Positions 10,542-60,750 of a DNA stretch of 64,000 nucleotides are shown here, in pieces; position 1 is the first letter of the stretch, and each line of letters starts with the position of its first letter. Made by a program: the position numbers and the translations under genes. Source of the DNA: an uncultured Clostridia bacterium (GTDB lineage: Bacteria > Bacillota > Clostridia > Christensenellales > UBA1242); NCBI GenBank assembly GCA_934772445.1, contig CAKVMJ010000003.1, forward strand, positions 1,672 to 65,671, read 5' to 3'. A model generated the notes under the pieces. It saw nothing but the letters and a program-made list of their open reading frames with translations, was not told the DNA's origin and made no database searches.

Positions 10542-13500
10542 TTATTTTTTCTTTGATTTTATAGGAAGAAGAGAACGGCTCTTTTCTATTTCCTTAACAA
10601 TATTCGCTATAACTTTGGATTTATGCAAGAAATAATCTCTGCTCCAAATCCTCATTATATTCCAACCTCTAGATTTTAGATATGCTGGTCTGAACACATC
10701 TCTTTCCAAAACAGATGGAGAAGATTTATATGCAGAATAATCACATTCCAAACCAAGCAAGTATTTATCCGATGGTCTATCATAAATAGCTAAGCCAATT
10801 TTATAATTAGTATTACCTAAATTCGTTTCAACCTTAAATCCAAGACTTTCAAGTTCGTTTTTAATATCCTGTTCAACTGCACTCAAGCTTGTATTTAAAA
10901 TAGAGACTTCCGAATTTGTACTAATTTGGTCTAGGATAACTTTTGTTTCGAAACTATCGCCATTTGAAACAGCACGAACATATTTTAAATAGCTTTTAAA
11001 TATCTTTGGTCCAAGATTTTTAGTACCTTCAACATTCAATTGCTCGGGCTCAATACTAGTTACAACATATATCTTTTCCTTAGCACGAGTTATTGCCACA
11101 TTAAGTCTATTTTCGCCACCTTCAGTTGATAATGGTCCGAAATTTGCCATAACTTTACCAAATTCATTTTTAGCGTAACCAATGCTAAATATTATTATAT
11201 CTCTTTCATCACCTTGTACATTTTCAAGGTTCTTAACAAATAGAGAAATATCCTCGCCATTTTCCTTACGGTTTTGTTCCCTTAAAAGAGCTTCTTTAAA
11301 TTTAGGATTAATACTTGCCTCACGATCTATTGCATCTTCGATTGTTGATTCTTGCTCCGCATTAAATGTGATAATTCCAATAGATTCATTATGTTTTCTG
11401 TTTGCAAAAATCTTTTTTAAAACGCCAACCACCGCTTGAGCTTCAGCCACATTACATCTATTTATCCATTTACCTTCAACTTTAATTCTCTCAATAGGTT
11501 TTGATGATCCCCTATTTTTGCTAGTGTTTGGAGAAATTTGCAATTTTCCATCATAGAAGCAAAGGTTTGAGAAATTTATAAGTTCCTCATTTTTACTACG
11601 ATAATGATATGTAAGATTTGCACTATTATATCTTGTCATTGCAAGGTCTAACAAACTCTCAACTTCCAAAGCTGCTTGAGTTGAATAATCTAGTTTATCA
11701 TCTATATCGCCACCTAAATATCTTTTCATAAATGTTGCTGATGGTCTAAGCTGTTTTGAATCACCCGCCACCACAATATTCTTTCCACGATAAATTACTG
11801 GCAATGTGTTTTCAATAAATACTTGTGATGCTTCATCAAATAATATCAAATCGAATAAGTTTTTAACCAATGGAAGAATATTGCAAACGCCCTCTGGAGA
11901 TAACAACCAGCAAGGGAAAAGTTTATATAGATAATCCCCATAAACTTCCATAAATTTCCTAATAGCCCATTGATTCTGAGTTTTATTTATTTGATATAAA
12001 TAGTTCTTACTTTCTGGGTCTTTTTCAAAATGCTTTTGATAATCTTCTATAAATTGATTAACACATATCTTTTTCGAGGTGTTATTTAAGTCTGCTTCAA
12101 GAGAAAGTATTCTATTTTTAATATTATCATAATCCAAGATATTAGATAATTCTTTCTTATGTTTATCTTCCAATTGAGTTATTTCGTGATAAATCCTAAT
12201 ATTCTTAATTTTGCTTAATGTTTCTAAATACTTACTCTTAGTATCTGTTGTTCTATATGCAAATTTTAAAATAACTTTTTCATTATCTGTAAGTGTGTCA
12301 ATACTTGCATTTAAATCTCTAAATTCAACATAACTTTCCAACGCTTTCAATAAATATCTTGGATACATCATATTTCCATTCAAGATATTATCTATCATCA
12401 TACTATATCCATTTGGAGTTAGGATATCTTCCAAAAATTCATATTCAGTTGTATATTCTTCAATAGCTTCAATAGTTTTAGAAAACTCAGATTTAATATT
12501 TCTTTCTAGTTTATTTTTTATGTGTAATGTGAAAGGAAGAGCTGGTAAGAATAATAGGCTTAATTTAACTTTTTTATAAACTTCTGGATAGTTTGTTTTA
12601 CCAACAAAATTAACTAATGGTTTTAGATTATTGTCTTTAGATTTATTATCCACAAAATATGCCACCAATTGTCTTGAGTTTGGATTTTTAGACATATCAA
12701 AAGGTGCAGTACGGTCTGCTAAAATCTTATTTAATCTCGATTTTGTTTCATTAACTATATGAAATTCCAAATCACCGCGAATGTTATCTACAAAAGGATT
12801 AACTTTTTTAGCTTCAACATATTTATAATAAAGTTCGGCTTTATTTTTCTCTTTAATAAGCCTTAAACTCTCATTTAATTCGTTATAGTGTAACGCCATA
12901 AGTTTAGAGTTTTTAAGCATATTTTGGTAGATTACATATTCATAACTCTTCTTACCAATAATTGTGGCGTTAGCATACATCTCACCTAACGACAAACCAA
13001 AATCTGTTTGCTCAAATAAAACATTGCTTATTTTTTGCAAAGCTTCTTTTTCACGATTTAACTTTTCTTCAATTCTAATATAATCGGATTCAGACTTGCT
13101 TATATCCTTTTTCATTGTTTCTTCGTGTATAGTTCTAACTCTTTCATAGAAAGCACCTTTTTTCTTCTCGGCATCTGTTAGAAACATAACTTTAGAATTA
13201 AGCATTCCCAATCTATTATAAACAACATCTAAAGCCGCTCTTTTTTGAGATACCACAAGCACTCTTTTATGCTTGGATATGGCATCGGTTATAATATTTA
13301 CAATTGTTTGAGATTTACCAGTTCCCGGAGGTCCATAAATAACCATATTACCATTCTTATTTATGCTAGAAATAGCATTTTCTTGAGCATAATCCAAATT
13401 TGAAATAGTATATAAATTCTCATCAACTTTCTTCGCTGGTTTTGATGCTTTTGCATATAAAAGCTCATCAATTGCATCGTTTGTAAGTCTTTTTTTCTCA

Positions 13501-14357
13501 AGCAATGTGTAATCATTATAAATAGAATTTGCTAGAGGATATTTTCCTAAAACGCAACAATGTTTTAATTCAAGCCATTGACCCAATTCCACATTTTTAG
13601 TTTTTTCGTAATCAAACAAGCCTTTTCTTGAACTATATGAAATTTTAATACCAAATTTCTTTAAGTATTCCAAAAGTTCTGGTACGCCTTTAAACCTGCT
13701 AGACATTGAACCTTTAAATTCCATATCCAAATTTTCCAAATCTTTAAGTTTATATCTTTGAGCATACGCTAATATTAAAACCTTATTTAAAAGTATGTTC
13801 TCATTTGGTCTAAATTCAATATTAACAGTGGTTTCATTAACAACATCTATTGTAACTGGAAATAAAACTAAAGGTGCTTTAACTTCAACATCTTTTGACA
13901 AATAACCTTGCACAAAAGGATAACCAACATATAATTCATATCTGCCAGTTTCTTTTTCAAACTCTTCAATTTCCCTTTTTAAAGCCTTAATTGAGCTAAC
14001 TTGTGAAATAATTGCTCTTTTAACTTCTTCTCTTCTTTTTCTCTCAAGTTTTAAAGCCTCTGAAGATTTTTCAACTCCTTCCAAATTTTCTAAATCAGTT
14101 TTTTGGCGAGTATATTTCTGTTCTAATCCAAGATTTTTAGCAATCCTATCGTTATTATCCTTGCTTATAATTGTAAACGCATCTTTATTGCCTTTCCATA
14201 AAAAGTCTATAAGGTTAGAAATACCCTCATAGTCGCCATCAAATAGTTTTCCTATATCAAAACTATTTTTCTTGCTTATTTTTTTAGAAAAAAGACTTCT
14301 ATTTTTTCCGCTAATCTCAACTAATCTTTCTTTATAATATGTATAAATACTCTTCAA
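10542..14357 (-). CDS. Superfamily-1 (UPF1/DNA2-like) helicase with DUF4011-type N-terminus and C-terminal DUF559/restriction-endonuclease-like domain
   Basis: 1,271 aa. TTG start with AAGGAG 6 nt upstream. Walker A GPPGTGKSQT, LFDEASQV, VVAGDSKQLRPS and NVAITRAKEKIYVV. The C-terminus LLGLECDYSAYKSSPSVLERDVFRPAYLKSRGWNIMRIWSRDYF matches the Vsr/DUF559-like fold signature. Confidence 0.85.
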   Translation of the reverse strand: MKSIYTYYKERLVEISGKNRSLFSKKISKKNSFDIGKLFDGDYEGISNLIDFLWKGNKDAFTIISKDNNDRIAKNLGLEQKYTRQKTDLENLEGVEKSSEALKLERKRREEVKRAIISQVSSIKALKREIEEFEKETGRYELYVGYPFVQGYLSKDVEVKAPLVLFPVTIDVVNETTVNIEFRPNENILLNKVLILAYAQRYKLKDLENLDMEFKGSMSSRFKGVPELLEYLKKFGIKISYSSRKGLFDYEKTKNVELGQWLELKHCCVLGKYPLANSIYNDYTLLEKKRLTNDAIDELLYAKASKPAKKVDENLYTISNLDYAQENAISSINKNGNMVIYGPPGTGKSQTIVNIITDAISKHKRVLVVSQKRAALDVVYNRLGMLNSKVMFLTDAEKKKGAFYERVRTIHEETMKKDISKSESDYIRIEEKLNREKEALQKISNVLFEQTDFGLSLGEMYANATIIGKKSYEYVIYQNMLKNSKLMALHYNELNESLRLIKEKNKAELYYKYVEAKKVNPFVDNIRGDLEFHIVNETKSRLNKILADRTAPFDMSKNPNSRQLVAYFVDNKSKDNNLKPLVNFVGKTNYPEVYKKVKLSLLFLPALPFTLHIKNKLERNIKSEFSKTIEAIEEYTTEYEFLEDILTPNGYSMMIDNILNGNMMYPRYLLKALESYVEFRDLNASIDTLTDNEKVILKFAYRTTDTKSKYLETLSKIKNIRIYHEITQLEDKHKKELSNILDYDNIKNRILSLEADLNNTSKKICVNQFIEDYQKHFEKDPESKNYLYQINKTQNQWAIRKFMEVYGDYLYKLFPCWLLSPEGVCNILPLVKNLFDLILFDEASQVFIENTLPVIYRGKNIVVAGDSKQLRPSATFMKRYLGGDIDDKLDYSTQAALEVESLLDLAMTRYNSANLTYHYRSKNEELINFSNLCFYDGKLQISPNTSKNRGSSKPIERIKVEGKWINRCNVAEAQAVVGVLKKIFANRKHNESIGIITFNAEQESTIEDAIDREASINPKFKEALLREQNRKENGEDISLFVKNLENVQGDERDIIIFSIGYAKNEFGKVMANFGPLSTEGGENRLNVAITRAKEKIYVVTSIEPEQLNVEGTKNLGPKIFKSYLKYVRAVSNGDSFETKVILDQISTNSEVSILNTSLSAVEQDIKNELESLGFKVETNLGNTNYKIGLAIYDRPSDKYLLGLECDYSAYKSSPSVLERDVFRPAYLKSRGWNIMRIWSRDYFLHKSKVIANIVKEIEKSRSLLPIKSKKK

Positions 14358-20755: not shown

Positions 20756-22132
20756 TTAATTATCCATTGAATAAGTTTCTTCTGGATTTTCTTTTAGATA
20801 ATCCAAAATATCTTGTTCTTTAATACCGAAAACGCATCTATCTTCATCTTTGATTTCCTTACCATCAATATCATATAGAGTTGCATCGCCATCTTGAGTT
20901 ATAACCAAAGTTTCACCATTTAATAAGAATGTGTTATCGCCAGTATTTTTATCAAAAGCAATTGTTTGGATAGCACCATCTTTTGATTCATACAAAACAT
21001 TACCATCATAATCTCTTAAATCATAAGAGCCATCAAACCAAGCTCTTACCCAACAATTTTCATAGTGAACATCTGTGATTTCAGCATCTGTTTTCTCATC
21101 TTTCATTCTAAGAACTGTATCAACTTTTTGGTTCTTATAATCATCAACAGAAAATTCTGTAGTTTGTTCGCTTGTTTCAATTGCAGAGGTTTCTTCTTTA
21201 GTTGTTTCTTCGGGAGCTTTCTCAGTTTCATCTGCTTTAGTTGATTCAATTGGAGAAACTACAAATCCATTATCCTCTTTAGATGTTGTATCTTCAGAAA
21301 CTGTGGATTGAGTGGTTTCAGGAGCTGAAGTTTCGGTTTGTTCTTTATCTTCTTTTTTGCCAGCACCTAAAATAGCACCAGTAATAATTGTTCCAGCAAC
21401 TAATCCGCCAACAACCCAAGGAAGCCATTTGAAGTTTCTTTTCTTCTCATCTTCTTTTTCTGGAATAACTTTTGGCTCGATTGCTAAGATAGGTTCTTTA
21501 TAAATTGCCACTTGAGTTTGACCATCTCTTGGAACAATTTTTCCGCCACCAGCTTGAACAACATATCCGCCTTTGCCATCTGGAAGCATTACATCGCCTG
21601 TTTGAGTAACAAATTCACCATTACCATTTGGTTGAATCGATTCACCAGTTTTAGAATCCTTAAATAATGAACGGAAATAATCCATTGTATCATTTTTAGG
21701 AAGCTTTTGATGAACAAGATTAATTGAAGAAGTTTTTTCTCCATCAAAACAAGTTACAGTACCATCGGTATAAACTTTAATATATGGATTTTCATCAACT
21801 TTATCTTTTTCAAAATAACTATGAGCACTAAAACTTACGCTTTCCCTAGACTCACCCGGCATTAAAGGTTTATCTCTTTTTATATCATAAGTTCTTTCAA
21901 AAACACCATCTCTTGCAAATTCAACGAAAGGTCTGCCATTTTTATCTTTGCCTTCGTAAGCATAAGTACCATCATCATACCTATATTGATTAAATACAGA
22001 ATCTTCAACTCTAATAATTTCACTATCGGTTAATTTAACGCCTTTAGCAGGTCTGCCTAAATGAAATTCACCGCTTTTTAATCTCTCTATATATTCTTTA
22101 AGTTTTTCAATCTCAAATCTATCGTAAGCCAT
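20756..22132 (-). CDS. Hypothetical bitopic membrane protein
   Basis: 458 aa. AGAGGTG RBS. No signal peptide. A single central TM (WLPWVVGGLVAGTIITGAILGAG) is followed by an E/T/S-rich linker and a beta-rich C-domain. It starts 18 nt after the upstream gene, so the pair is probably bicistronic. Confidence 0.6.
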   Translation of the reverse strand: MAYDRFEIEKLKEYIERLKSGEFHLGRPAKGVKLTDSEIIRVEDSVFNQYRYDDGTYAYEGKDKNGRPFVEFARDGVFERTYDIKRDKPLMPGESRESVSFSAHSYFEKDKVDENPYIKVYTDGTVTCFDGEKTSSINLVHQKLPKNDTMDYFRSLFKDSKTGESIQPNGNGEFVTQTGDVMLPDGKGGYVVQAGGGKIVPRDGQTQVAIYKEPILAIEPKVIPEKEDEKKRNFKWLPWVVGGLVAGTIITGAILGAGKKEDKEQTETSAPETTQSTVSEDTTSKEDNGFVVSPIESTKADETEKAPEETTKEETSAIETSEQTTEFSVDDYKNQKVDTVLRMKDEKTDAEITDVHYENCWVRAWFDGSYDLRDYDGNVLYESKDGAIQTIAFDKNTGDNTFLLNGETLVITQDGDATLYDIDGKEIKDEDRCVFGIKEQDILDYLKENPEETYSMDN

Positions 22133-22149
22133 TTTTCACCTCTTTTATC

Positions 22150-23376
22150 TTATCTACCATCGTTTACTTGGTAACTAATAACATCTGAATTTTCTTTTTT
22201 ATCATCATTAACAGTGTAATCAGTAACTTCTTCTTTTTCGTTGTTTTCAGAACCAACATTTGAGTTATCTTCGCCAACAGAATAATGCAATTCAGCATCT
22301 GGCTCTGGTCTAATAATAACTTCGTTATCTTCATTAACTGTTACATTATAAACTCCATCATAATCTGGGTCTGGTTTAACAGTGTCATCTTCACCCGGTG
22401 TGTAATCAGGAACTTGGTCATCGTAACCATCGTTAACAACATAATCAATAACGCCATCATCTGGTTTGTAACTATCATCATAACTAGGACCATCATAGCT
22501 TGGACCAGAAACTCTAATAACCTCGTTGCCATCATCAACTCTGTATGTTCCATCATCGCTAGAGCCACCGTGAGAACCGCCGTTTGAATCTCCATCAACA
22601 ACATAAGAGTTGTCATCAACTTGAGTTACATCATTGCCCTCATCAACTCTATATGTTCCGCCATCATTTGTACCGCCAGTAGAACCACCACTTGTATCTC
22701 CGCCGATAACATAAGAATTATCATCAACTTGGCTTACATTGTTTCCTTCATCAACCCTGTAAGTTCCACCATTAGAGCCACCACCTGTTGTACCCCCAGA
22801 TGTGTTATCTCCAATTACTTGAGAACTGCCATCAACTCTTGAAACATTGTTGCCCTCATCAACTCTGTAAACTCCACCAGAAGTTCCAGAATTTGATGGA
22901 GTGGAAGGTTTAGAAGGAGCAGTATTTACATTTTGATTACCAGTAACTTGAGTTACTTTATTACCTTCATCAACTCTATATGTTCCGCCATTAGTATTGT
23001 TATTAGAATTGATAGTTGCACCTTGATGTTCGCCTTCAACTATAACGCCATCTTGGTTTACAATTACATTTATAACTTGACCACCAGTTTCTTTACCTTT
23101 TTCAGTAACTGGAATTAAGCAAGCCTCTTCAGAATTGTACATAACCACTTTATATTGCCTACCATCTAAATAAGTATAATTAACAGTAACTGGATTAGTA
23201 CAGCTAGTTAAAGCACCCATAGAAATAGCACCTGCAATTGCTAAAGCACCTGCTTTTTTGTAAACTCCGCTATTTTTCAAAGATTTAGAAACATTTTCCC
23301 ACTTGTTCTTTGCTTCTTCTCTTAATCTTTGTTCTTTCTCAACAACATAACCTTTAAAATCATCAAAAAATCCCAT
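22150..23376 (-). CDS. Hypothetical membrane-anchored or lipoprotein-like repeat protein (G-T-Y-R-V-D-E-G-N repeats)
   Basis: 408 aa. GGGGAGAA RBS. About 40 cytoplasmic residues, then a hydrophobic segment ending in a lipobox-like LTSC. Five ~36-aa repeats G-[TV]-Y-R-V-D-[ED]-G-N-x-V-x-[QR]-V, then shorter Y-x-V-N-D units. The composition is rich in D, N, G and Y. Confidence 0.65.
   Translation of the reverse strand: MGFFDDFKGYVVEKEQRLREEAKNKWENVSKSLKNSGVYKKAGALAIAGAISMGALTSCTNPVTVNYTYLDGRQYKVVMYNSEEACLIPVTEKGKETGGQVINVIVNQDGVIVEGEHQGATINSNNNTNGGTYRVDEGNKVTQVTGNQNVNTAPSKPSTPSNSGTSGGVYRVDEGNNVSRVDGSSQVIGDNTSGGTTGGGSNGGTYRVDEGNNVSQVDDNSYVIGGDTSGGSTGGTNDGGTYRVDEGNDVTQVDDNSYVVDGDSNGGSHGGSSDDGTYRVDDGNEVIRVSGPSYDGPSYDDSYKPDDGVIDYVVNDGYDDQVPDYTPGEDDTVKPDPDYDGVYNVTVNEDNEVIIRPEPDAELHYSVGEDNSNVGSENNEKEEVTDYTVNDDKKENSDVISYQVNDGR
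22510..23000 (-). repeat. Five imperfect tandem coding repeats, period about 107-108 nt
   Basis: The core TCATCAAC(T/C)CT(A/G)TA(T/A)G(T/A)TCC(G/A)CCA recurs near 22537, 22644, 22752, 22859 and 22967. Confidence 0.8.
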
Positions 23377-23513: not shown

Positions 23514-23550
23514 GAAAAAAGCAGATTTAAAATAAAATCTTAAATTCTGC
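23514..23550 (-). terminator. Terminator downstream of the LRR protein gene
   Basis: GCAGATTT...AAATTCTGC stem with one bulge, followed by a T run on the minus strand. Confidence 0.6.
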
Positions 23551-23573
23551 TTTAAACTATTATTTTTTATATT

Positions 23574-25088
23574 TTATAACGCATCATACTCTGCACGAGT
23601 TACTTCCCAAGTGACATTTAATTGATTTCCGGAATCATAATAAAATCCTCCTTGCCACCCGCTTGGCTTACTACTTGCTTCACAATAAACTTGTAAGTTT
23701 GAAGAGCAACCCATAAAAGGAGACTGATAATAGAGATACCCCAATATTTCTGTAACAGATTTTGGTATAAATATTTTAGTTAATTTAGTGCAACTCATAA
23801 ATGCATTAACTCCTATACTCGTTATACTATCTGGTATAACCACATTTAATAACTCTCTACACTGACCAAAAGCACAGCTGCTTATGCTTGTCACACTATT
23901 TGGTATTTCAACATTTACTATTCCACTCCTACAAAATGCTTCATCTCCTATACTCGTTACACTATCTGGTATTGTTACATTTGATATGTTTGAACAAAAA
24001 TAAAATGTATAATCAGCAATACCAGTCATCGTATTAGGCAAAATGACACTAGTTATATTTTTATTTTGTTTAAAAGTTGAAGTTGAAGAATTTGTTCCAG
24101 CAACAAACCCACTCACTGGTTTACCATTATATATATTTGGAATAACCACTTCTCCGCTAGGAGATGTGGCACTCTCAGCAGAAACCAGATACGAATTACT
24201 ATCATCGGATAATGCAAAACTTAAGCCCTCAATGCCAGCAGTTTTGCAATAAAAAGAAGAAATTGAAGAATCTTTTAGAGAATCATTTAAGTAATCATCT
24301 GAAACAACTTTAGTTAGTCCTTCATCAAAGAACCAGCCTGTGGAATATTCGGCAGTTTGTTGAGTGGCTAAATATTCGCCTAGAGTTTGACCTGCCAATG
24401 TACTTGAACTTACAGTTGTTGGAGAAGCTCCATCAACAGAGGTTACTATTGTTCCATTATTATCTCCACCAACTTTGAAATTAAAGGTTACGCCTGCATC
24501 AAAGTTTGGTGCTAAGCCAAAATCTGCATTTATTGTTCCTGTTCCACCTTTGGCTAGAGATAGAGTTACTGAATATGTAAATATATCTCCTGCTTTTAGG
24601 TCATAACCTGAAGTGCTTGATACAGCAGTTAGAGTACTTGTTCCATCAGTTTCTGAATTTAGAGTTACTTTTGGTTTATGGTTTTCTGCTCCCGTTCCGC
24701 TTTCTTCTGCCTCTGCTGGAGTTTTAGTTACTCTTATATTCAATGGTGTTAGGCTCTTATTTCTTACATAATATGTAAACTTTATTGCATTTGGATTATT
24801 TACACCATCATCAGTGGTATCTGTAAAATTACAAGATAAATCTCCGATTATATTTGCATCTGTATTGGTAGTAGTTGGAGTGATAGTAGTTTTAGCTATT
24901 TCTTTACTCTCATCTCCCCCGGTTGCTTTAGCCCAAAACTCTAGATTTACTCCTGCTTGAGCAGTCCAAGATACATTTGCACTTATATTTGCATTTCCAG
25001 CTGTTGCTGCATAGATTGCAACTAACATTGCCGTAATTACAAGCGTTACTGCTATTACTGTTGCAATAACCTTTGTTGACTTTTTCAT
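23574..25088 (-). CDS. Surface protein with C-terminal BspA-type leucine-rich repeats
   Basis: N-terminal signal/anchor KVIATVIAVTLVITAMLVAIYAATAG. C-terminal LRR_5-type units (IPDSVTSIGDEAFCRSGIVNVEIPNSVTSISSCAFGQCRELLNVVIPDSITSIGVNAFMSCTKL). The start is set at ATG 25088 because GGAGA lies 6 nt upstream; the track ATG at 25094 abuts the RBS. Confidence 0.8.
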   Translation of the reverse strand: MKKSTKVIATVIAVTLVITAMLVAIYAATAGNANISANVSWTAQAGVNLEFWAKATGGDESKEIAKTTITPTTTNTDANIIGDLSCNFTDTTDDGVNNPNAIKFTYYVRNKSLTPLNIRVTKTPAEAEESGTGAENHKPKVTLNSETDGTSTLTAVSSTSGYDLKAGDIFTYSVTLSLAKGGTGTINADFGLAPNFDAGVTFNFKVGGDNNGTIVTSVDGASPTTVSSSTLAGQTLGEYLATQQTAEYSTGWFFDEGLTKVVSDDYLNDSLKDSSISSFYCKTAGIEGLSFALSDDSNSYLVSAESATSPSGEVVIPNIYNGKPVSGFVAGTNSSTSTFKQNKNITSVILPNTMTGIADYTFYFCSNISNVTIPDSVTSIGDEAFCRSGIVNVEIPNSVTSISSCAFGQCRELLNVVIPDSITSIGVNAFMSCTKLTKIFIPKSVTEILGYLYYQSPFMGCSSNLQVYCEASSKPSGWQGGFYYDSGNQLNVTWEVTRAEYDAL

Positions 25089-25145
25089 CTTCATTCTCCT
25101 TATATTTATTTTTCCACAGTTTGTAAGTTTATTTCTATTTTCTCA

Positions 25146-25174
25146 ATTATATTACTTTTTTTTTTTTTAGTCAA
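25146..25174 (-). promoter_or_regulatory. Consensus sigma-A promoter whose spacer is A13+GTAA
   Basis: Minus strand reads TTGACT (25174-25169), AAAAAAAAAAAAAGTAA (17 nt), TATAAT (25151-25146). About 45-nt 5'UTR to the RBS of the LRR gene. Confidence 0.7.
25156..25168. repeat. Homopolymer tract, T13 on plus strand (A13 on the coding strand)
   Basis: Counted directly: 5 T at 25156-25160 plus 8 T at 25161-25168. Confidence 0.95.
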
Positions 25175-25415
25175 GTAAAATCCAGCTTATTTTAAAAGTT
25201 TTTTTAATTTTTTAACTTTTTTACAATTATTTTTGAAATTTTATTAATTTTATATAAAAATTAAAGTATTTAACCTTAAAATTATAAGATTAAAAATTAA
25301 ATGAAAATGTTTACTTAGAAACTTATTTAATTTAAAGTTTTCTATTAAATTTTTATGTTAATTATTCAAATTTTAATTAATTTAATGATTAAATCTTTTA
25401 GTTTTCTATTTATAA

Positions 25416-25448
25416 AGAAAAAACTTGCCTAAAATCTCAAGCAAGTTT
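25416..25448 (-). terminator. Terminator downstream of 25458..26105
   Basis: AACTTGC...GCAAGTT stem with a T run on the minus strand. It isolates the LRR gene as its own transcription unit. Confidence 0.65.
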
Positions 25449-25457
25449 TTATAATTT

Positions 25458-26105
25458 TTATTCAGCACATAGAGTCTCTAAGAAGTTATATAAATCAATT
25501 GTATAACCTTGAACACTCAATCTATAGTTTGAAACAAACTCTTCAGGAGTTGTTTTATCAGATTCTTCAAGATAAATTGTGATTTCACCAAAATCTTTTG
25601 AATCTGTGATTTCCATAATCATTTTTGAATATTTAACTGTTGCTTTGCTTTCATCTTCAACATCTTCAAGCTTATATTCTGAACCATTAACTTTTAAAGT
25701 TTTCATAGCATCATCTAAATTTAAAGCACCAAGAGTGTAATCAAAAATTAGATAATAATTATTTGTATTTGATTCTATGATACTTTTTAAATTTTCAGAA
25801 CCAGTGGCAGTTTTATGAGTTACAGTTGGTTTATTTCCATAATAACCTAAGAAAACTGAAGATAAAATCTTTTCTTTATAACCTTTAGAATTTTCTTCTA
25901 AAATATTTTCAATAATTGGTTTTTGTTCATCATCTGACATATAATATCCTAAAACTTTTTCTCCATTATGCCAAACTTCAACCTTTTTCAAATCATCTTT
26001 CTCAATTGGATTATAGAAAGAACTTGGAACTATTGCTAGAACGATTACTGCTAATAATATAACCGCTAACACACCTGTAATAATATAACTTAATGTCTTT
26101 TTCAT
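25458..26105 (-). CDS. Hypothetical N-terminally anchored protein
   Basis: 215 aa. Single N-terminal TM (YIITGVLAVILLAVIVLAIV). No recognisable motif. Confidence 0.55.
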   Translation of the reverse strand: MKKTLSYIITGVLAVILLAVIVLAIVPSSFYNPIEKDDLKKVEVWHNGEKVLGYYMSDDEQKPIIENILEENSKGYKEKILSSVFLGYYGNKPTVTHKTATGSENLKSIIESNTNNYYLIFDYTLGALNLDDAMKTLKVNGSEYKLEDVEDESKATVKYSKMIMEITDSKDFGEITIYLEESDKTTPEEFVSNYRLSVQGYTIDLYNFLETLCAE

Positions 26106-41010: not shown

Positions 41011-41050
41011 AAAAAACAAAAGCATAAGAAAACTTATGCTTTTATTTTTT
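41011..41050. terminator. Bidirectional terminator between convergent genes
   Basis: AAGCATAAG-AAAA-CTTATGCTT 9-bp stem flanked by an A run and a T run. Confidence 0.8.
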
Positions 41051-44000
41051 AGAATTTATAAAGAACTAATTCAAACATTGGAGTTGTTTCATCATCTGCA
41101 TTTACAAAACTATCGTATTTCCATTGATGATTATTATAGAAACTAATTAATGTTGTAGAATTTCCATTACTATAAACATAATCGAAAGTTGCTAAATTAA
41201 CATCATTTTTACCCTCAATATTTTTATTATCCTTACCACCAAACAATCTAACATCTTTAAATGAATTGTTTGTGCTATTACCAGCCATACTTTGACTAAT
41301 TACTTCTTTACTCTTAAATTCAAATAAGTTTGTTGAATTTGCGATTTGAGCCTTACCTATCAACGCACCAGAGTTAGTTGTTTCAACTGTAACACTACCA
41401 ATATTTTGAATGTTTTTAACTTCTGTTACGCCATAATAGAACCATTTAAACGAACCAGCTTCTTGCTTTCTTTCGCCATAGATTTCTAAGTAACCAAGTA
41501 AGCCACCAATATTATTTAGAGTAACTTCTTCTTCATTTATAATATCGCCAAAGTTTTTAGCCACATTCAACTTACCTCTAAGCGAACCAAATAATCCGCC
41601 AACATAAGATGCATCGCCTAATAATGAGATACTTGCATAATTTGCCACAACTTCGTTTATAGAAACTGCATCACCTGCAATACCTCCCACAAACTCTCTT
41701 GCAGTAATATTTCCATTATTAACCAAATATTTTAACCCATTATTTTCATAATTGAAATCTGCATTGAAATTATCATTATTAGTTTGAGATACCACGCCAT
41801 CAGTTTCAACAGATATTGTTTCAAAATAATCATTTGAACTTGCTGTGTGGTTTAATTTACCAATTATACCACCAACATTTGCGTAACCTTCAACATTTCC
41901 CATATTTCTTAGGTAGTAAACCGATTTATCAACTTGTTTACCAACAATGCTTGTTTTCATACCAAATCCGATAAATCCACCAACATAATTATTACCTTTA
42001 ATATTACCCTTATTTAGAGTTTGATAATAATTATTGATTATGATTTCACCACTAATATAATAAAGTCCTGTTGCATCATCAACTAAATAATTATTGTTTT
42101 CATCTTTTTCAAAATCGTTATATCCTGAATCTGTTTCTTTTGAATATGTGTTTCCACTTAAAGTTAAGTTTTCAACATAACCAAATAATCCGCCAACATA
42201 ATTTAAGCCAGTTACATTTCTTGAATTTAGAATATCAACTGCTTGAACATTATTTGCAATCATCACACCAGCCATACCACCAACAAAACTATAATTATTA
42301 GCAGTGATTAAACCAGAATTTGTGATGTTATTTAATTCAACAACTGATTGGCTACCGCTAGAGTAAAGTTTTTGAGTGAAATTACCAGTAATTTCATTTG
42401 CAATTATTTCAGTTCCAACGAAACCAAATATTCCACCAACATAGCTTGCTAACGAATTAGAAGTTTCAATATCTCCAGCATTAGCTATATTATTTGCAAT
42501 CAAACTATTTGAGCAATCTACAAAACCTATAATTCCACCAGCAAAACTACCTTTTGAGGTTACTTTTGCAATGTTATTTAAGTTTGTAAGTTCGATTGTT
42601 TCAGCTTTGATGCTTGCAACGATTGAACCTGAATAATCGCCATTTGCATTGATTGAACCAGTGTTTGTAATTTCTCCATTTACGCCTTGAATAGTTGAAG
42701 ATTTTGCATCAATGAAACCAATTAAACCAGCAACATAAGTTGAACCAGTAATTCTACCAGTATTTTGACAATTATTTACAACACAACTTACGCCATTATC
42801 ATAACTAGATACAATTTTTCCAGCCAAACCACCAACATAATCTTTACCAGTAACGCTATTATTATTGAAGCAAGCTACAAACTGAACCACCTCAGCAGAT
42901 GAATTTCTTATTGCAATTAATCCGCCAGCAGATTCACTTGCAGTGATTAACCCAGAGTTTTTACTATTACTAATTAAAACTTTTCCATCAACAATTGCAA
43001 CAAATCCACCAACATTTATTCCATTCAAATCGCTTTTATTAATGCAATCTTGAATATCCAAGCTTCCTGTAACATATCCAGCAAGTCCACCAATATTGCC
43101 TGCGGATTTATAGTTAAATTTACCATTGTTTTCACAATTTTTAAATATAACATTTTCAGCTTTACCAATTAATCCACCTATATTTGTAGTTGCAACTAAG
43201 CCTGTTAGAGTTGCATCATTTGTAATATTTTCAATTACGCAATCTCCTGTGGCTATAAATGCAATTATACCAGCAGAATCTTCATCTATAGATGTAACAG
43301 AAACTGAATTTGTACTTGAGAACCCTATGTATCCAATTTTTGAATTTTGAATTGCATAGAATAATCCACCATCTGAAACTGTTAAATTGCTTAGAGTTCG
43401 CTCAACTTTTGTATTTGAAGCTAAGTTATATCCAAATAAGTTACCTTTAAAGATATATGGTTTTTCACCAATTGAAGCCCAAACTTTAGAACTAAAATCT
43501 AAGTCATTTAAGATTCTTACATCAATACCAGCAAAATCATACTCGCCATTATTAACTATTCTTGCAATCCAAGCAAGTTCGCTTGGTTCTTGAATATCCA
43601 CATAACCATTTGTTTTGATTGTTTCAATGAAAGTTTTTTCTTCATCTGTGATAACATTCTCATTATGATACTTATCTTCACCCGGCATTTTAGTACCATA
43701 AATCCAATAATCGAAATAAACTGGGTAACCATTATTTAAACTATTAACCCTACACCAAATCTTACCAAATCTAAATCCGTCAATAGAGTTATCTGTTTTT
43801 AAAGTATCCGAACTTATATTTATAAGTTTGTTATCTCCGCCAACTGTGGCTAGAGAAGAAATTGTATAAATCTTTCCTGCAATTCGAGAGTGGTTTACAT
43901 TCTCACCAGAACTTAAAGCATCAATTTCAGTTGAGATATAGATTACACCATCAACCCAAATATTAAATGAAGTTTCAGCAAATCCAAATAATCCGCCCAC

Positions 44001-47000
44001 ATTCTGCTTACCTTCAATATTTCTAGCATTAATATTTGTTGTTATATCACCATTTGAAATATAGCAATCTGAGAATGATATACCTGAATTAGAACTTCCA
44101 ACAAATCCGCCAGCAGTATTACCATAAGCATAGCCTTCAAATGAACATTGACTTAATATTGGTTGGTCAAAGTTTTTACCAATAATTCCGCCAACAGTTT
44201 CGCCATAAAGCATTACTTTGCTTGTACCATTATATGTTCTTATTTGAACACGAGAATAATTTGATGCGCCATTATTTTGTCCAGCTAATGTACCGGCATA
44301 AGTTTCAGTGCCACCAGCAAGCAAGATACCGCTACTTAAAACTAAATTTGAAATTTTAGCATTTCTAGTATAACCAAATAAACCAATAACTTTTCCGCTA
44401 ACAAATCTACCAGAAACGGATAAATCTGTGGTTACATTAATTCCGCTTATTCTTCTATTGTTTCCAATGAATGTACCATTAAATGGTCTTGCACTTGTTC
44501 CGATTGGTGACCAAATATATCCAGTTAAATCTATATCAGCCATAATTTCAACTTTAGCACCATTTGCCACTGTTCCATTATTCCAATCGCTAGCAAATTT
44601 TGCTAATTGATTAGCATTTATAATTGAATAAGTGCCTGTGGATTTATCATACGCTTCTTGATAATTACTCCATAATTGATTAGTTGTAATTAACCAACGA
44701 AGCTCAACTCTTCCATCTTTATCTAAAGCCCAAGTTTTTTCAAAATCAAATTTTGCTTGGTTTTTACCTGCTTCATATTCATTTAAGAAAGATTTTATAT
44801 CTATATTAGCTATATCCAAAACGCTTACTTTTTCGTTCTTATCGTTTCTATAATCATAAGAAGAACCATAAGCCATATAACTATTATACATTGTTTTTTC
44901 TTGATTAAAGATAGCCTGACTTTCCGTTGTGATACGGCTCTTTATAAACACGCCATTAAAGCTTGTTAGATTATTTACATCGGCTTCACTAATTATACCA
45001 TTATTAACCAATGTTTCCATTCCGCCATCTTTTAATCCTATTACAACACTTAAACAATCTAAGCTTACATTCTTTGCACCACTTTGAGTGAATGTTGATG
45101 ATAAATAAATTGTTTTATTTTCTAGGCTTAAATCTTCTGGCAATACTGTACCGCCATATCTAATAGCCGAATATTTATCTTTGTCATCACCTGTTAGCAA
45201 TGTTATATCTGTTGTAATCTTAACATTTTGATTATTTCTATTACCTAGCTGAATTTCTGTTAGAGTATCTTTAATCGTTGGAAACCTCATATTTGTTGTT
45301 CCAACACTACCCTTAACCCATTCAGCATTTTCTGTTCCACCTAACTTTAAGCTATTCAAACTGCCTTCAGTAAATTCTTTATAACCTTTTGCAAGTCCAT
45401 AGCCATTATGATTTGGAATGAAATCGTAAACATAGCAAATATTATTGAATAAACCATCTTTACGAACTTCGTTTCTTTTATATTCACCAATAATACCGCC
45501 AACTTTCTCTTCTTTCTTTAATATACCAATCTTACTTAATGAATAACTGCTTGATATATTAATTCCATCACCGATAACATCACCCATAGTTTCGCTTACT
45601 AATCCAATTAATCCGCCAACAGTATTATAACTAATACCATTAGATTCTTTTGCTTTAATTGAACCAGCAGAATATGTTACTAAGAATATATCTGTGGCTA
45701 AATTATTAGATTTAATATAACCAACAAGTCCACCAATATTATTTCCATAACCATCTTCAGTTTTAATATTTAAATTGCTTACAGATTTTTGAATTATAAT
45801 ACCGATATTCTTATCAACTGCATCACCTGCAGCATCAAAGCTTTCAAACTTACCAACAAGTCCGCCAATATTTGAATTGTTTGCCTTATTTAAGACAACA
45901 TCTCCACAAGCAGAACCACTATTGAATATCCTAACCGACCTACCATAACCGATTAGGCCACCAATATTAGTTTCATCAACATTTGTTCCTTCAATATTAA
46001 CGCTTGCAACACCATTTATAAATATTGCACATTCAGTTTTACCAACAAGTCCACCAATTGTGGCATTGGATTTATCTCCATTCAATACAATATTACCAAC
46101 GGCATTTGCGATAATCGGAATTTCATCTTCATCTTCACATTGAACATAACCAGCAACTAATCCTACATTCACACTAGCATTTGAAATTATAAAGCTCTTA
46201 GCTATTCCATTTGCAAAACTAATCTGACAATTTTCAACCCTGCTCTTATTACCAGTTAGGCTACCAACTAGTCCACCAGCATTTAACGCACTTGTTGCTA
46301 TATCATCAATAATACTTAGATTTAAATTCGTAAACTTTGTGTTATTTGCTTGGTTTACCAAAACACCAAAGTTATCTCCGCCCGCACTTATTATCTTTCC
46401 GCTAGCTGTTTCTATATTGAAATCTTTAAATGTTGCACCATCAGCACATTCAAATATAGAAGCTCTCACATTTAGAATTGTACTATCGTTATATGATTTA
46501 ATAACACCTGTGAATGGATTATTGATTGAGTTTAATGGGTTCCAACTCTCTCTATAATTATCCATATCAATATCGTTTAATAAAACATAAGTTTTGCTTG
46601 GATAGTTTGCTGTATTATTTACTAAATCATAAATAGTTTGAACATAAATTACATCTTCATAAACCTTAGTTCTAACTCTTGGGAACACATAAGTTTCGTT
46701 TTCCGACCTAGTACCTGTGGTCTCACTCATACTAACACCAAACCAAGTATCTTGTCGCCAGTTATCATAAATATTTTGAGGTCTTGAATTTTTACCATTA
46801 TAAGAGAATTGTAATGTTACCTCTCTTTCATCACCAGTTTTGGTTGTATCTAATAAAATCTTTGTTAGGTCGTATTCGCCTAATTCTGATTCGCCATAGT
46901 TTCTTACAATATAATGATTATCTATTGCATTACCTTTAATATATTCTGCATCATAAATTCTAGCAGTTAAACCATCGGTTTTTGTTTCATTAATCATATA

Positions 47001-50000
47001 TTTACCAGTGATAAATTCTTTAATTGTTCTAAATGAACCATAATTTGCTAATCTTGAGAACCTATAATAATTGAATGCATCATCTGTATCACCAATTGCA
47101 TCTTTATTTTTCAATTTAGATGTGAAGTCGCCAGAATAAGCATAAGTGGAAGGAATAGAATTTGAACCTTCAAACATTATATATTTAGTTAAGTTTCTAA
47201 CCAAATACTCATTTTCTCTATTCGCCTCATTTTGGTATTCACCAATAATATTCAAATCATCTGTGCCATTTAATATTGCTTTAACGCTTGTTGCATTACC
47301 AATTTCTAAGATAAGTTTTTTACTATTACTCTTTGCATACGCCATCATAAAGTAAACACTCTCACTCTTAACTCTTTGGTTTGTTGGGTTTTTAGATGTG
47401 TTATACCATTCAACATCGCCATATAGATATGCACTATTTGTGTTATAAGACATTGCCCTACCAATAAACGAACCAATTTCTGCTTGATATGCATCAATTC
47501 TATAAGTTTTTCTATTTACAACTTTATGAGAATCTTTCCATAAGTTTGCTCCAACAACTGAACCTAGAGAAATGGTTGTGTTCATATTATTACGATGAAT
47601 ATCTGACCAATTCTTAATATAATAATCGTTGTTTCTGCTTGCATTTAATAAATCATAATTATTAAAGGCATCTTCCATTGTTTGGATACCAATAAGTCCA
47701 CCATAAGAAATGAATGAGAATACAGATGCAGTTGTATAAACATCTTTCAAAGATAAACCAATAGATAATCCAACAATACCACCTGCAAATTTAGAATTTA
47801 TGCTTGCAACATCAACTCTATTATAACTAAATTCAATATTACCACTATAAGATAATCCTGCAAGACCACCTATATAATGAGCATTCGCATTAGATGCCCC
47901 AAATAGGTTTGGATTTTCGCCTTCAAACAAGCCATCATCATCGCCAACAGCAACTCCCCATTCAATTGAGATAGTTGATTTTGCATCGTTTGAATCGAAA
48001 TTCTTAACTTTGTTATAAATTTCCGAATCCATTGCAGTTTGATTTTCGTGAGTTACTTCACTGCTAGTTATATCGCCTTCTAAGTGACCAACTAATCCGC
48101 CACCAACTGCACTTGCTATTATTCTTGTGTTTTCAGAAACCACCAATTTTGAATTACTAATTAATGAGTTTCTTCCAACATAACCAAATAATCCACCAAC
48201 AACCTCGCCTCTTAAGCTAATATCGGATAGAACTTGGTTACTTCTAATATTTGCATTGCTAACCACATCGCTTCCAAGGTCTATTGTTTTTGCCTCTAAT
48301 ATTCCAGCAATACCACCAGCATAAGAAACTTCATCAATATTTGAAATATAATTTCCTTCATCGTTTGTTGAATAATGATATAGATTAAATCTATGAGTTG
48401 GGTCATCAACTTTAGCCGAATATCTATTTGCTGGACCAGTGTACATATTAGATTTAATAGAAACAGAAGATTTTATATTTGTAACTATAGTTTCATCGCC
48501 AGAGATTTTTCCAGCAAGTCCACCAGTTGCATTAAATCCATTGATTAATGAATTTTCATCGCCAAGAATTTGAATATTTTCAATATCTCCGCCCTCAATT
48601 CTTCCTGCCAATGCTCCAACATATTTAACGGCTGTGGCACTGATTGTATTTATATCCAAATTAAGATTTCTAACATTAGAACCTCTTAATCCATCTTCTT
48701 CGCCTTTCAAAACTTTAAATAAACCAATTTCTTCAATTGCTTCTTCTTTAACCTTTTCATTTTCAGCAACTATCTTTAAATCTTGAATGGTCATACCATT
48801 ACCCTCTAAATCGCCTCTAAATGTAAGTTTATAAGTTTTTACAGACTCTAGAACATTATCAAAATAAATATCTTTAACAAATCTTAAATATGCATCTTGG
48901 TCAACAGTTGTTTCTTCGCCCATATTATTGATTTGTAATGAGTAAATATTAAATTTTGATGCAGATGTTATAAGATATGGATTTAATACACTTTCGCCAT
49001 AAATTATATTAACACCTTTTGAATTTTCTTGAACATAACTATATGTATAAGAACTCTCGCTATTTTCATCAATTGCATTGATTGAGTTTACAGCAACTAG
49101 CAAGATTTCTAATATATCTTTATCACTTAATTCTTTATAATTTGTACCTTGTATAGAACCAGTATAAGTAATGCCATTTATGAAATAATTATTCATTATA
49201 TTCTGAACGGTATTATTACCAGAAATAATTAAATCTGTTTTGATAAGTGGGTTTTTAACAGTTATATAAGCATCTATTATTGCCTCACCAAGTTTAGTTG
49301 CATAACCGCAAGACCTATTTTCATCTTCTTCTATACTATTAGATGTGTTGTTTCCAATTAATCCAATAAATATTTCTTTATTTGAAATTCCATTATCTGG
49401 ATATCCAACGCCATCATTTGTTGTTGCTTCCAAAATTCTTGATTTTACTCTAATATATCCCATATCTGATGCTAATGTTTCAAGCACAGCTTTTATATCA
49501 CTATTAGATGGCAATTGAGGAATAAAGTTTGCCTTTCTCAAACTCATAGTTTTTAAGTTTGCAGAAACAAGTTCTGGAACTCTTGAAGTATAACTATTAT
49601 GTTTGAAATAATTTGCAATTGCTTTATTTTCGCTTGCTTTGTTATTATTTGCATCTGGAATAAACCAAACTGCTCTTGCCAATTTCTCCGGGTCTTTTGT
49701 ACCATTCTCAGCATAATCACTATTAAATGAATATGTTGCAAAACTTGTATAGGCTGCAAATTCCACAGATGATAATCCAATTGCAGTACTATCGCCTGAG
49801 CCAAATGGATCTGACCATAGTTTTTCTTGGTTAACCACGAATTGTAAGTTCTTACCACCTTGACCAGTTGTTAAGAATATTTCTTGCAATCCAACATAAA
49901 GTTTGCCATAGTTTTCTTCAAAACCTTCATCATCTTTATGGCTATATAATGCACTAAATATATCAAATAATTGTTGATAATCGTTTTTATTTACTTGCAT

Positions 50001-53000
50001 ATAATAGCTATTTTCAATCTTACCTTCATTCAAACTTTGTGAAGTTGAACCTTCAAATATAACACCTGTGAAAGGTTTATGATAAGTATCGTTTGTTTGA
50101 ACAGAAGATAATGTGAAGGAATTATTAATAGAAGCTGAAGCACCATTTGCAAATACGAATCCACTCGAACCACTTGCTAATATCAAGATATTAGAATATG
50201 AATTTGATACCACACCACTATTTGAATATATAAATCCAGAAGCATTTCCAGCTGAATTAATAACTGAACCTACAGCTCTTTGATTTAAAATATTTGTGTA
50301 AGTTAATTTAGTATCGGTTTGGCTATTTAAGAATTTATTTAATTCATAACTTGTACCATTTGTGATTTCATTATATGTATATTTCAAACCTACATATCTT
50401 TTATCAAATGTATCACCATTTTCAAGTTCCGTACTTCCAGTAACACCTGAAATATTTGGAGTTTGAGTAAATTCACCTTGAACTATTCCTCTACCATAAA
50501 CATAAGAATAATTAATTTCTCCGCTATTAAATATCGCAAAACCTGCAGTACCATTAGATGTATAACTTCCAGCACCTTTTTCGGAAATATTATAGATGTT
50601 TCCGCCTTTGAAATAACTTGAAGCCACCTTACCGCCACTAGCATTTTCGCATACAAATCCAGCAACATAAACATTACCAATAATTGAAACATTTTCAATA
50701 GCACTATTTGTTATATATCCGCTGTTAACACCAACCACTCCGCCAATTCTTATATCTTCGCTAGAACTAATTGTGTTACCAGATATTTTTATAATACTTG
50801 TTGTTCTATTTGAATTATCTAGCAATGGATTATTGCTTTTATATGTTGAATAATATGATGCTTTAATTCCATCTGCTTTTCCAAGCAAGCCATCTCTTTC
50901 TTCTCTGAATTTATCCGCATCGTAAGTTACATAAGCATTTGTAATTGTACCTTGGTTTTCACCAGCAATTAAGCCAAATCTTATCTGACTTAAATCTTGA
51001 ACTACAACATTAATATCGCCTTCTGCGTTTTTGATTTCTAATGTATCATCAAAGTTTCTATTATATGGAACTGCTTCCAAAATAATATTTTTAAGAATTG
51101 TTGCTTCGGATACCACTCCGAATAAACCAATATTTGTTTGGCTATTTTCAACAAAGTTTGCAAAAGATTTTAATCTTAAAACATAACTATTACCATCAAG
51201 GCTTGCAATTGCGGTGTTTAATGGAACCCAGTTTTCTAATTCCAAATCTTCCATTAATATATAGTGTACGCCCGCTTGCATATTTTTCAATTCTTCAACA
51301 GTATAGATAGGTTCTGGATTTTCTTCGTTTGACAATTGAATTGCATTAAATCCAAACTCACAATCAAAACTCTTTGAGTATTTATTTTGTTCACGATTTA
51401 CAATATCTTCAGCGCTATCCGCAAGTCCAACGCTTGTTTTACCATTTATATCTTTACCATATCCAATTGAAACGCTTAAAGCAAGTTTTGTTTGAGTATT
51501 TATATTAGTAACCCTAACATTCAAAGTTGCATAAGGTTCTAATAATTCCATCATACTATTTTCACCGATTGAAACTGAAATTCCAGTATTTAATCTGCTT
51601 GCTCTAGCATTTGTAATTTGAACGCCATTATAATTGCCTTCAACAGATAATGTTTCATAACTATCACCATCAACATATTTCCAATAAGCAGACCTATATA
51701 GATAATAAGCATCAGATAATGTACCTTTATTTAAAACGCCAGTTTGATTTGCATATTCATCAATTCTATTTGATAAAACATCAATAGTTGTTCTATCCAT
51801 TTCCACTTCTCCGAAGTTGCCCGCTTGATTTTGCCAAGTGGAAATTAAATTCGAACCATTAGCACCATCATTTTTCATTAAGTCTTCTAGGCTTATATAT
51901 TCACCAAATAAACCTCTTGAAGTTATTAATGCTTCTAATTTTGTAATATCTTTTCTAATGTTTGCTAAAATTGTATCCGCATTTTTAGCAATTTCATCAG
52001 CAGAATTTCCAAGAGCTGTTCCAAATTTTATGGTTAAATCTTTATAAGAAACATATTTTGCATCTATAACCGCTTTTAACGCATATTCTTGATTATAATT
52101 ACCATTTAATTCGTATTCTCCAGAATCGTTTTTCTCAACTCTTTCTGCTACAACATTATTAATAACATATTCAGAAATTATAAATGAAACTTTCTTTTTA
52201 GATTCATATCTATTATTGTTTATTATCTTATAAACCGTTACTTCAAGCGAAAATTCTTCGCCAATAATATCTCGATTATAAGGAACATAGAACCTATAAG
52301 TTTCGCCATCTTTATCTGGCATTACCTGTCTATTTAAAATATATCTCTCAACCGCTTCATCTTGCAATGAATAAGTTTTATTTGCAAGAATAATTGATTC
52401 TATATTTTTATCAACAGTTAGATTAAATAATTTACTTTCATCAATCGTACCATTTGTTCTAACAGTTAATTCAACTTCAGTTCCAATAGCAATTGCTGTT
52501 TCGGTTTCGCCATTAGAATTAAATACTAAATCTGGAGTTAATTGAGGAGAGATAATTAATTTTTCATCTATAACTTTCTTTCCATCTGCATAACCAACTA
52601 AATGTAATTCAAATTTAATGCTTGCATCACTAAATGTTGGAATACTTGTTTTTACATAATAATTACCATTATATTGGTATTCCACCAAATCTTCATTTGG
52701 ATAACCATAACTTATTTGTTTTAAGTTTAATGAATTTGAAACTTCAACATTCCCCTCATCATCAGCAAGAGATGTATAGTAACCACCAAATAAGTAATTA
52801 TTGTTTATTTCTCCGCTCTGATTTGTTATATAATTTGCATACATCTGCTCTAATGAAACAGAATATCCGCTAACCACATTTGAGCTTAGAGTTAGAGTGT
52901 CAACCTTACTATAACCTGGGTGAATATTTATATGCAATAATCCCGGTTGACCACAAACCAATGTGTTTGAAATAAAGCTTTGATTTATGCTTGTGATTAC

Positions 53001-60569: not shown

Positions 60570-60750
60570 TTCCATTTTCCTCTGCATTTATGTTTTGTAA
60601 ATTCAAAACAATTATTTAATTTATATATAAATATTATATATACATAACGCAAAATATCAAAATAAAATTAAATAAAACATAAAAAAATAGAAAAGAATTT
60701 TACTTTAAATCTTTCCTATTTTTAATTTTTAGAAATGTTTACATTTCTAA

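Follow-up and report, generated by a model that had tools for sequence, protein, structure and literature searches.

In Neisseria meningitidis, poly-C/G tracts lie in or beside the promoter spacers of opc and porA, and the length of the tract sets the geometry of the promoter and thereby a graded or on/off expression of the surface protein; in the fim genes of Bordetella, a poly-C tract separates the activator site from the −10 hexamer. The vlp genes of Mycoplasma hyorhinis form a multigene family; the 5′ cassette is conserved among its members, and the distal part varies and contains repeats. The tract of Helicobacter pylori sabA adjoins the −35 hexamer or lies upstream of it and exerts its effect by aligning the elements that flank it, and that of a Bifidobacterium breve pilus gene is a G run inside the coding region that acts by frameshift and not by promoter spacing. 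Here, we describe a candidate for such a system in a 64-kb stretch of DNA from an uncultured Clostridia bacterium (64,000 nucleotides [nt] of contig CAKVMJ010000003.1; the whole stretch is called the window, and all coordinates refer to it unless stated otherwise): a promoter whose −35/−10 spacer is mostly a run of 13 A's, located ahead of a gene for a leucine-rich repeat (LRR) protein of the BspA type. From the comparisons presented below, we consider it likely that the element is a promoter-spacer contingency locus, in which slippage changes the distance between the −35 and −10 hexamers.

Insertions and deletions in the −35/−10 spacer switch M. hyorhinis vlp, M. arthritidis maa2, and M. mycoides vmm (PMC2268961, citing Citti & Wise 1995). 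The locus described here shares the homopolymer within the promoter spacer with these genes; there, single-base indels turn transcription on and off (PMC2268961), and here this effect is predicted. The T tract of the H. pylori sabA promoter is a "rheostat," in which the length of a homopolymer near the core promoter tunes transcription in steps (PMC4081817). In vpma of Mycoplasma agalactiae, a T tract directly upstream of the −10 hexamer was found experimentally to play no role, and switching is brought about by Xer1-mediated inversion (PMC2268961). In Candidatus Mycoplasma girerdii, BspA-like LRR surface proteins make up a large family, for which phase variation by simple sequence repeats (SSRs) has been inferred from metagenomic data (PMC5476646), and the B. 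breve pilus gene provides a replication-slippage on/off switch in a Gram-positive commensal of the human gut (PMC9187656).

The element at 25174..25146 reads, on the minus strand, TTGACT-AAAAAAAAAAAAAGTAA-TATAAT, where AAAAAAAAAAAAAGTAA is the 17-nt spacer A13GTAA. It is composed of the following parts:

25169..25174, minus strand: −35 hexamer TTGACT, matching TTGACA in 5 of 6 positions; ACTTGACT is kept in the paralogous cassettes, and TTGACA is found in the poly-G relatives described below
25156..25168, minus strand: run of 13 A's (T13 when read on the plus strand), in which slippage is proposed to occur; it takes up 13 of the 17 spacer positions
25152..25155, minus strand: GTAA, the invariant remainder of the spacer, adjoining the −10 hexamer; GTAATATAAT is common to the poly-A cassettes
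25146..25151, minus strand: −10 hexamer TATAAT, matching the consensus in 6 of 6 positions

With a score of 11 of 12 in a consensus scan, this is the top sigma-70-like site between 22.5 and 27.5 kb, and the ATG of the LRR gene follows 58 nt downstream; we infer that it is the active promoter of this gene. The near-perfect hexamers, the optimal 17-nt spacer, and the 13-nt homopolymer at 25156-25168, all noted in a first-pass annotation of this DNA, were recovered in the sequence and by the scan. The hexamer pair by itself is unremarkable in AT-rich DNA of 30% GC: pairs with ≤1 mismatch at 17-nt spacing occur 6 times in the window versus 2.1 expected, a count that was also attained in 5 of 100 shuffles. 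Fifteen of the 26 near-consensus hexamer pairs in the window have a spacing of 16 to 18 nt, and this clustering fits a sigma-A-type promoter grammar in the host organism.

The A13 tract is the longest homopolymer of the 64-kb window, followed by one run of 9 and five of 8. A first-order Markov model (analytic) predicts ~0.7 runs of ≥13 per window; the same model predicts ~23 A/T runs of ≥9 in this 70% AT sequence, of which 2 were observed. Because it overpredicts long runs by about 10-fold, the model is a poor null and was dropped as a significance test. Long runs are thus depleted in the window, and therefore, the genome appears to avoid them, with the A13 tract as the exception. Such a depletion would fit the view that slippery tracts are selected against wherever they do not belong to a contingency locus.

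With the conserved upstream gene as an anchor, nine contigs carrying the same locus were recovered from other assemblies; tract lengths in these are consensus calls from Illumina metagenome assemblies, several of which have ~3-7x coverage. In a 570-nt alignment that runs from the intergenic region into the beginning of the gene, the nine contigs are identical to the window except for the tract, and L006 has in addition a few clustered mismatches after it. Tract lengths at the locus, with that of a further strain (L023) included, are as follows:

A13: the window, L001, L002, and L003
A14: L005-L009
A15, spacer of 19 nt: L023, a well-assembled 86-kb contig of a strain that is ~94-95% identical

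A single-base indel in the tract is the sole difference from the window in L005 (2224 nt) and L009 (1468 nt), and the neighboring A7 and A8 runs are constant in every contig. The first-pass annotation had proposed to compare the tract among related strains or metagenome-assembled genomes (MAGs); this comparison revealed that the tract is not invariant, with A13, A14, and A15 present at the locus, and the polymorphism is real at the level of the assembly consensus, as distinct from the level of single cells. Contigs that end in the tract (L003, L004, and L008) or start in the 5′ untranslated region (UTR) (L031 and L037) were considered as a sign of read heterogeneity and rejected as ambiguous, because the cassette and the tract together form a repeat of >31 nt that is common to the paralogs and would break de Bruijn graphs anyway. 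The 408-amino-acid (aa) gene downstream of the LRR gene, when used as an anchor for further alleles, returned solely known contigs or ones that break off within the LRR gene. L005, L006, and L007, three short contigs that stem from different samples, all begin at window coordinate 26851 inside ftsH and thus have a breakpoint in common.

The LRR gene has paralogs. Full-length homologues are 45-85% identical, with a strongly conserved N-terminal domain (N-domain) and C-terminal cap, and their LRR blocks differ widely in length and sequence (proteins of 409-875 aa). At least five further, scattered chromosomal sites of the family were found:

adjacent to pnp/ftsK: L025 and L036
after rplQ: L024
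after recO: L038
adjacent to asd/lysC: L037
one more site: L028

Two of the paralog contigs come from samples that also carry the locus of the window, at similar coverage. In the copy next to pnp/ftsK, the cassette AAGCG.AATTTTACTTGACT-A14-GTAATATAAT was present in two independent samples; its likeness to the window ends ~20 nt upstream of the −35 hexamer, and farther upstream the sequence is unrelated. The copy after rplQ reads TTAACC-AAAAGAAAAAAAAAGCTG-TATAAT, with an interrupted tract (A4GA9) and a spacer of 18 nt, and the copy after recO reads TTGACT-AGAAGGTAAAAAGTAAT.., without a tract and with a spacer of ~17-18 nt; in L028, the tract is collapsed to A7. Conservation among the paralogs peaks at both hexamers and falls off directly upstream of −35. 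Just upstream of the promoter of the intact gene at position 2501 of L038, the contig also has a 3′-end remnant of another family gene (positions ~2170-2260, ..TAIWGVTRAEFNAL*), which may be the trace of an earlier tandem copy or the scar of a recombination.

A second set of relatives was found in another species. A profile of the N-domain, scanned against one genome per GTDB species, matched a single genome, the MAG CAKVHY01 (uncultured Clostridia, Hadza), which has 12 loci with 46-75% identity (best tblastn segment) to the N-domain of the window. In seven of these, the spacer contains a G tract, intact in five and broken in two:

L017: G12 followed by CGTGA, spacer of 17 nt
L012: G14 followed by CGTGA, spacer of 19 nt
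L014 and L022: G15 followed by CGTGA and TATGA, respectively, spacers of 20 nt
L019: G16 followed by TATGA, spacer of 21 nt
L020 and L018: broken tract GGGTGTTGGGGG(G) followed by CGTGA and TATGA, spacers of 17 and 18 nt, respectively

The five copies with an intact tract have the form TTGACA-Gn-(C/T)(G/A)TGA-TATAAT, with TAAAAT in L014, and only one of the five has a spacer of optimal length. At the position of the spacer remainder, the poly-G relatives have (C/T)(G/A)TGATATAAT, and the 3′ flank of the G tracts, GT[G/A]ATATAAT, is homologous to GTAATATAAT of the window. The five G tracts are the sole G runs of ≥7 in ~66 kb of DNA with roughly 30% GC. No homopolymer was found near the start of the genes in L011, L013, L015, and L016, and L021 begins inside the coding region. 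The distance from promoter to ATG is ~190 nt in L012, L014, and L017-L020, and the long 5′ UTR is conserved, with a C6-7 run (C6 versus C7, a one-base difference between copies) and the hairpin TTTCAATCCGCAGGATTGAAA; the 5′ UTR in the window measures merely ~50 nt. Searched against Rfam, this long 5′ UTR gave no match to a known RNA element.

The structural properties of A tracts and G tracts are opposite; what is conserved is repetitiveness and not DNA shape. That a homopolymer has been retained at one exact place in the promoter through gene duplication and speciation, with its base exchanged between A and G in one direction or the other, therefore argues for selection for mutability, and replication slippage would be the simplest common denominator of the two kinds of tract. 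The copies with a broken tract or no tract, whose spacers all measure 17-18 nt, have the appearance of locked derivatives, indicating the spacing that would be required.

The transcription unit of the LRR gene is laid out as follows, from upstream to downstream on the minus strand:

25419..25450, minus strand: intrinsic terminator of the upstream 215-aa gene, a 14-bp stem followed by a T run (−14.2 kcal/mol, z −4.6)
25175..25418, minus strand: upstream intergenic region, 244 nt, very AT-rich and identical in all same-strain contigs
25089..25139, minus strand: predicted 5′ UTR, short and unstructured (no stable fold, z +0.4), with the transcription start site (TSS) inferred at ~25139
25101-25096, minus strand: ribosome binding site AAGGAG, 7 nt ahead of the ATG at 25088
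23574..25088, minus strand: coding sequence of the LRR protein, 504 aa
~23553..23515, minus strand: AT-rich terminator-like hairpin with a T run, directly after the LRR stop codon (−14.5 kcal/mol, z −3.2)

Merely the promoter-proximal ~20 nt of the intergenic region (AAGC.G.ATTTTAC) are common to the paralogs, which in addition keep the motif TGTGGA(A/T)AAA in the 5′ UTR. A reading of the open reading frame (ORF) as 506 aa was ruled out: all homologues start with MKKSTK, and the true start is therefore the second ATG, which gives 504 aa. The first-pass annotation had held that the unit is insulated by an upstream terminator and that the promoter serves the LRR gene only. The upstream hairpin at 25450..25419 was indeed found and probably shields the promoter from read-through. 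The downstream hairpin had been missed by the consensus terminator scan, its stem having too few G-C pairs, and the gene downstream of the LRR gene has promoter-like sites of its own; with terminators on both sides, the unit is therefore most likely monocistronic, the promoter driving the LRR gene alone. As for the neighbors, the 215-aa gene upstream (25458-26105, minus strand) and the two genes downstream (408 and 458 aa; 20756-23376, minus strand) are without a family match in Pfam and NCBIfam. The latter two keep their synteny with the LRR gene from strain to strain without exception, and within the 408-aa gene, a unit of 108 nt (36 aa) is repeated in tandem, in 2.3 copies (22526-22772).

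The encoded protein was also predicted beforehand to be of the BspA type, and this was confirmed by a match to PF13306 (LRR_5/BspA; E value of 1e-30, 106.7 bits against a gathering cutoff of 27.7, aa 338-458), by the AlphaFold2 model, and by Foldseek matches to TpLRR. The order of domains is an N-terminal hydrophobic membrane helix (aa 5-29), an unannotated beta-sandwich N-domain (to ~aa 315), an LRR module of the BspA/TpLRR type, and the conserved C-terminal cap. The model has a mean predicted local distance difference test score (pLDDT) of 83, with values of >90 in the LRR solenoid, and the solenoid resembles TpLRR of Treponema pallidum (6mlx; E value of 9e-8, TMt 0.64-0.69), an LRR cell surface protein of Faecalibacterium prausnitzii (4gt6), and pneumococcal PcpA (4cp6). 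The N-domain of ~310 aa has no match in Pfam, no sequence match in the PDB, and no significant fold match (its model has a pLDDT of 67); in NCBIfam, the LRR part matched the adhesin HupY/LrrG at a sub-threshold level only. The N terminus, MKKSTKVIATVIAVTLVITAMLVAIYAATAGNANIS, contains no cysteine and thus no lipobox cysteine, and the Pfam scan revealed no recognizable wall-anchoring domain. Judged from this architecture, the likeliest topology is an N-terminal membrane anchor that holds the LRR module distally, and the helix together with the TpLRR/BspA architecture suggests that the protein is exposed on the surface.

The family is mosaic. The N-domains of P0001 and P0005 are 73% identical and their LRR parts 98%; for P0005 and P0013, the values are 99.7% and 64%, and for P0004 and P0011, they are 73% and 99%. 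Furthermore, single nucleotide polymorphisms (SNPs) between strain-level contigs cluster in the region coding for the N-domain (24684-24813). This suggests module exchange (gene conversion) between copies of the family; the mosaicism could also stem from chimeric or cross-paralog assembly of a repeated family.

In our model, a sigma-A-type promoter (TTGACT/TATAAT) would drive a monocistronic gene for a membrane-anchored LRR surface protein, and replication slippage would add or remove single A's and thereby shift the length of the spacer. With A13, as sequenced, the spacer has 17 nt and the promoter is predicted to be on; with A12 or A14, the spacer would have 16 or 18 nt and the promoter would be weaker, and with A15 or more, at 19 nt or more, it is predicted to be off. 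Copies with an intact tract have spacers of 17-21 nt, and the broken or tract-free paralogs have 17-18 nt. The slipped-strand phase-variation switch put forward in the first-pass annotation is thus supported in its core, by the tract-length polymorphism and by the retention of the tract across paralogs and species; the element may act as a stepwise dimmer and not as a strict on/off switch. Slippage at high frequency within a population, with expression following spacer length, is what the sequences would lead one to expect. The multicopy family shares a homologous cassette of promoter, 5′ UTR, and N-domain at scattered sites, and some copies may have been fixed when their tract was interrupted or lost. 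With tracts that vary independently from paralog to paralog, combinatorial surface phenotypes would arise, with cells expressing different subsets or variants, and this would serve as bet hedging against host antibody, phage, or changing ligands. The model may be widened to a genome-wide system of many loci, in which a mobile cassette toggles ~6-12 scattered BspA-LRR adhesin genes independently, the base of the tract has been switched between sister species without loss of hypermutability, and shuffling of the LRR modules adds a second tier, so that a commensal would have antigenic and adhesive variation of a type regarded as typical of pathogens; of this wider version, we are somewhat more doubtful than convinced.

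Several points weigh against a spacer switch. Homopolymers of 13-16 nt, those of G especially, are prone to length miscalls at low coverage; the clustered errors of L006 just after the tract are typical post-homopolymer errors; and several contigs may reassemble the same samples, so that the independent alleles would be fewer than the contigs. An 18-nt spacer usually still works, and the effect of going from A13 to A14 is maybe modest. The poly-G promoters have an extended −10 element (TGnTATAAT), which can lessen the dependence on −35 and on spacing, and the T tract of vpma, which looks similar, had no role in switching (PMC2268961). Finally, the hexamer pattern alone is merely ~3-fold above chance, and there are other weak promoter-like sites within the AT-rich upstream region.

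The main rival explanation, which we regard as unlikely, is a static promoter, in which the A tract is a suitable spacer or a rigid or curved element and the lengths of 13, 14, and 15 are miscalls or slow neutral polymorphism. It draws on the fact that all lengths derive from low-coverage short-read consensus, on the errors clustered after the tract in L006, on the frequent tolerance of 18-nt spacers, on vpma as a known nonfunctional look-alike (PMC2268961), and on the naive Markov model, which allows ~0.7 runs of ≥13. Such a promoter would not account for a tract at the same promoter position in a paralogous locus with unrelated upstream sequence, nor for its replacement by G12-16, the sole long G runs there, in five paralogs of a related species. 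Furthermore, some spacers, with 19-21 nt, exceed the range in which a promoter works, whereas tract-free and broken paralogs keep 17-18 nt; long runs are avoided elsewhere in the genome; and the A15 allele lies in a well-assembled 86-kb contig. The pattern across paralogs and species thus weakens this rival but does not eliminate it.

We consider it improbable that the hexamers are not an active promoter at all, that transcription starts elsewhere, and that the tract is an upstream A-tract element or a transcribed run causing slippage of RNA polymerase. Other weak promoter-like matches are present in the 244 nt upstream, where the sequence is extremely AT-rich, and near-consensus hexamer pairs arise by chance about twice per window, but conservation among paralogs is highest at the hexamers and drops directly upstream of −35, the variable tract of the poly-G relatives is still flanked by TTGACA and TGATATAAT, and no better-scoring site lies in the 245 nt between the terminator and the element. 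That the cassette is mainly a homology arm for gene conversion, with variation arising by recombination of LRR modules and the homopolymer being incidental, is very improbable: the discordant identities of N-domain and LRR part, the strain-level SNPs clustered in the N-domain coding region, and the remnant of a family C terminus upstream of another family gene (L038) are in line with it, but recombination leaves unexplained both the long homopolymer of either base exactly between the hexamers and the tract length as the sole difference between otherwise identical contigs, the mosaic proteins could in part be chimeric metagenome assemblies, and recombination and slippage can coexist, as in known antigenic-variation systems.

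As to the organism, the window also encodes YpeB, UvrC, AspS, and FtsH, and YpeB indicates a spore-forming Firmicute lineage. The material for comparison consisted of ENA/Logan contigs and one GTDB MAG, and the species of the window was not among the GTDB representatives matched. The related contigs are without exception from metagenomes of the human gut, in most cases of the Hadza; searches of the JGI metagenomes with the exact cassette and the N-domain profile and of IMG/VR with both cassettes gave no match. Elsewhere in the window, a giant ORF of 6512 aa (41049-60587, minus strand) has no Pfam match at an E value of ≤1e-5 when scanned in two overlapping pieces, and a 1271-aa helicase-nuclease fusion (10542-14357, minus strand) combines DUF4011, an AAA_11/AAA_12 helicase, and a C-terminal REase_MTES_1575 nuclease.

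SSR-driven phase variation at multiple loci has been documented almost exclusively in pathogens. A 2025 review noted that multi-locus phase variation seems to be restricted to them and asked whether this reflects a bias of databases or sampling (PMC11868660). The locus described here bears on that question, as it resembles a textbook case of a promoter-spacer switch, spread across an LRR family in an uncultured gut commensal. If the model holds true, it would extend contingency loci to the gut Firmicutes, in which known phase variation is mostly by DNA inversion, and would suggest that immunoglobulin A, phage, or changes of ligand exert diversifying pressure on a family of surface proteins. 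Metagenomic studies would have to take such loci into account, too, as they fragment assemblies and a consensus hides the on/off state. A and G tracts at homologous promoters would, moreover, be a natural experiment for selection on mutability and not on a particular sequence.

Compared with the described systems, the locus comes closest to vlp in the way it would operate, and on this analogy the element probably works like vlp without being a member of the Vlp family. The Vlps are lipoproteins of a wall-less mollicute, whereas the LRR protein described here is without a lipobox cysteine, has an LRR module of the BspA type, and belongs to a spore-forming lineage of Clostridia; furthermore, 13 of 17 spacer positions are taken up by the tract, the copies lie dispersed over the chromosome and not in a cluster, and there is no sequence homology to the Vlps. 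The poly-G paralogs of MAG CAKVHY01 resemble opc and porA. These, like fim, are single Gram-negative genes for outer membrane or fimbrial proteins, whereas the locus described here belongs to a paralogous family of a Gram-positive-type lineage, the members of which have one cassette in common, with a tract whose base differs by species. In Ca. M. girerdii, variation is mainly by frameshifts in CA dinucleotides and thus translational; here, it would be transcriptional, by a mononucleotide tract in the spacer. Unlike in sabA, the tract is the spacer itself, and unlike in vpma, a length polymorphism was observed at the locus; no recombinase gene was identified among the few genes flanking the examined loci. 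What is new is the host, an uncultured lineage of gut Clostridia, the protein family, which combines a helix, an unannotated beta-sandwich, and BspA LRRs, and the interchange of A and G tracts.

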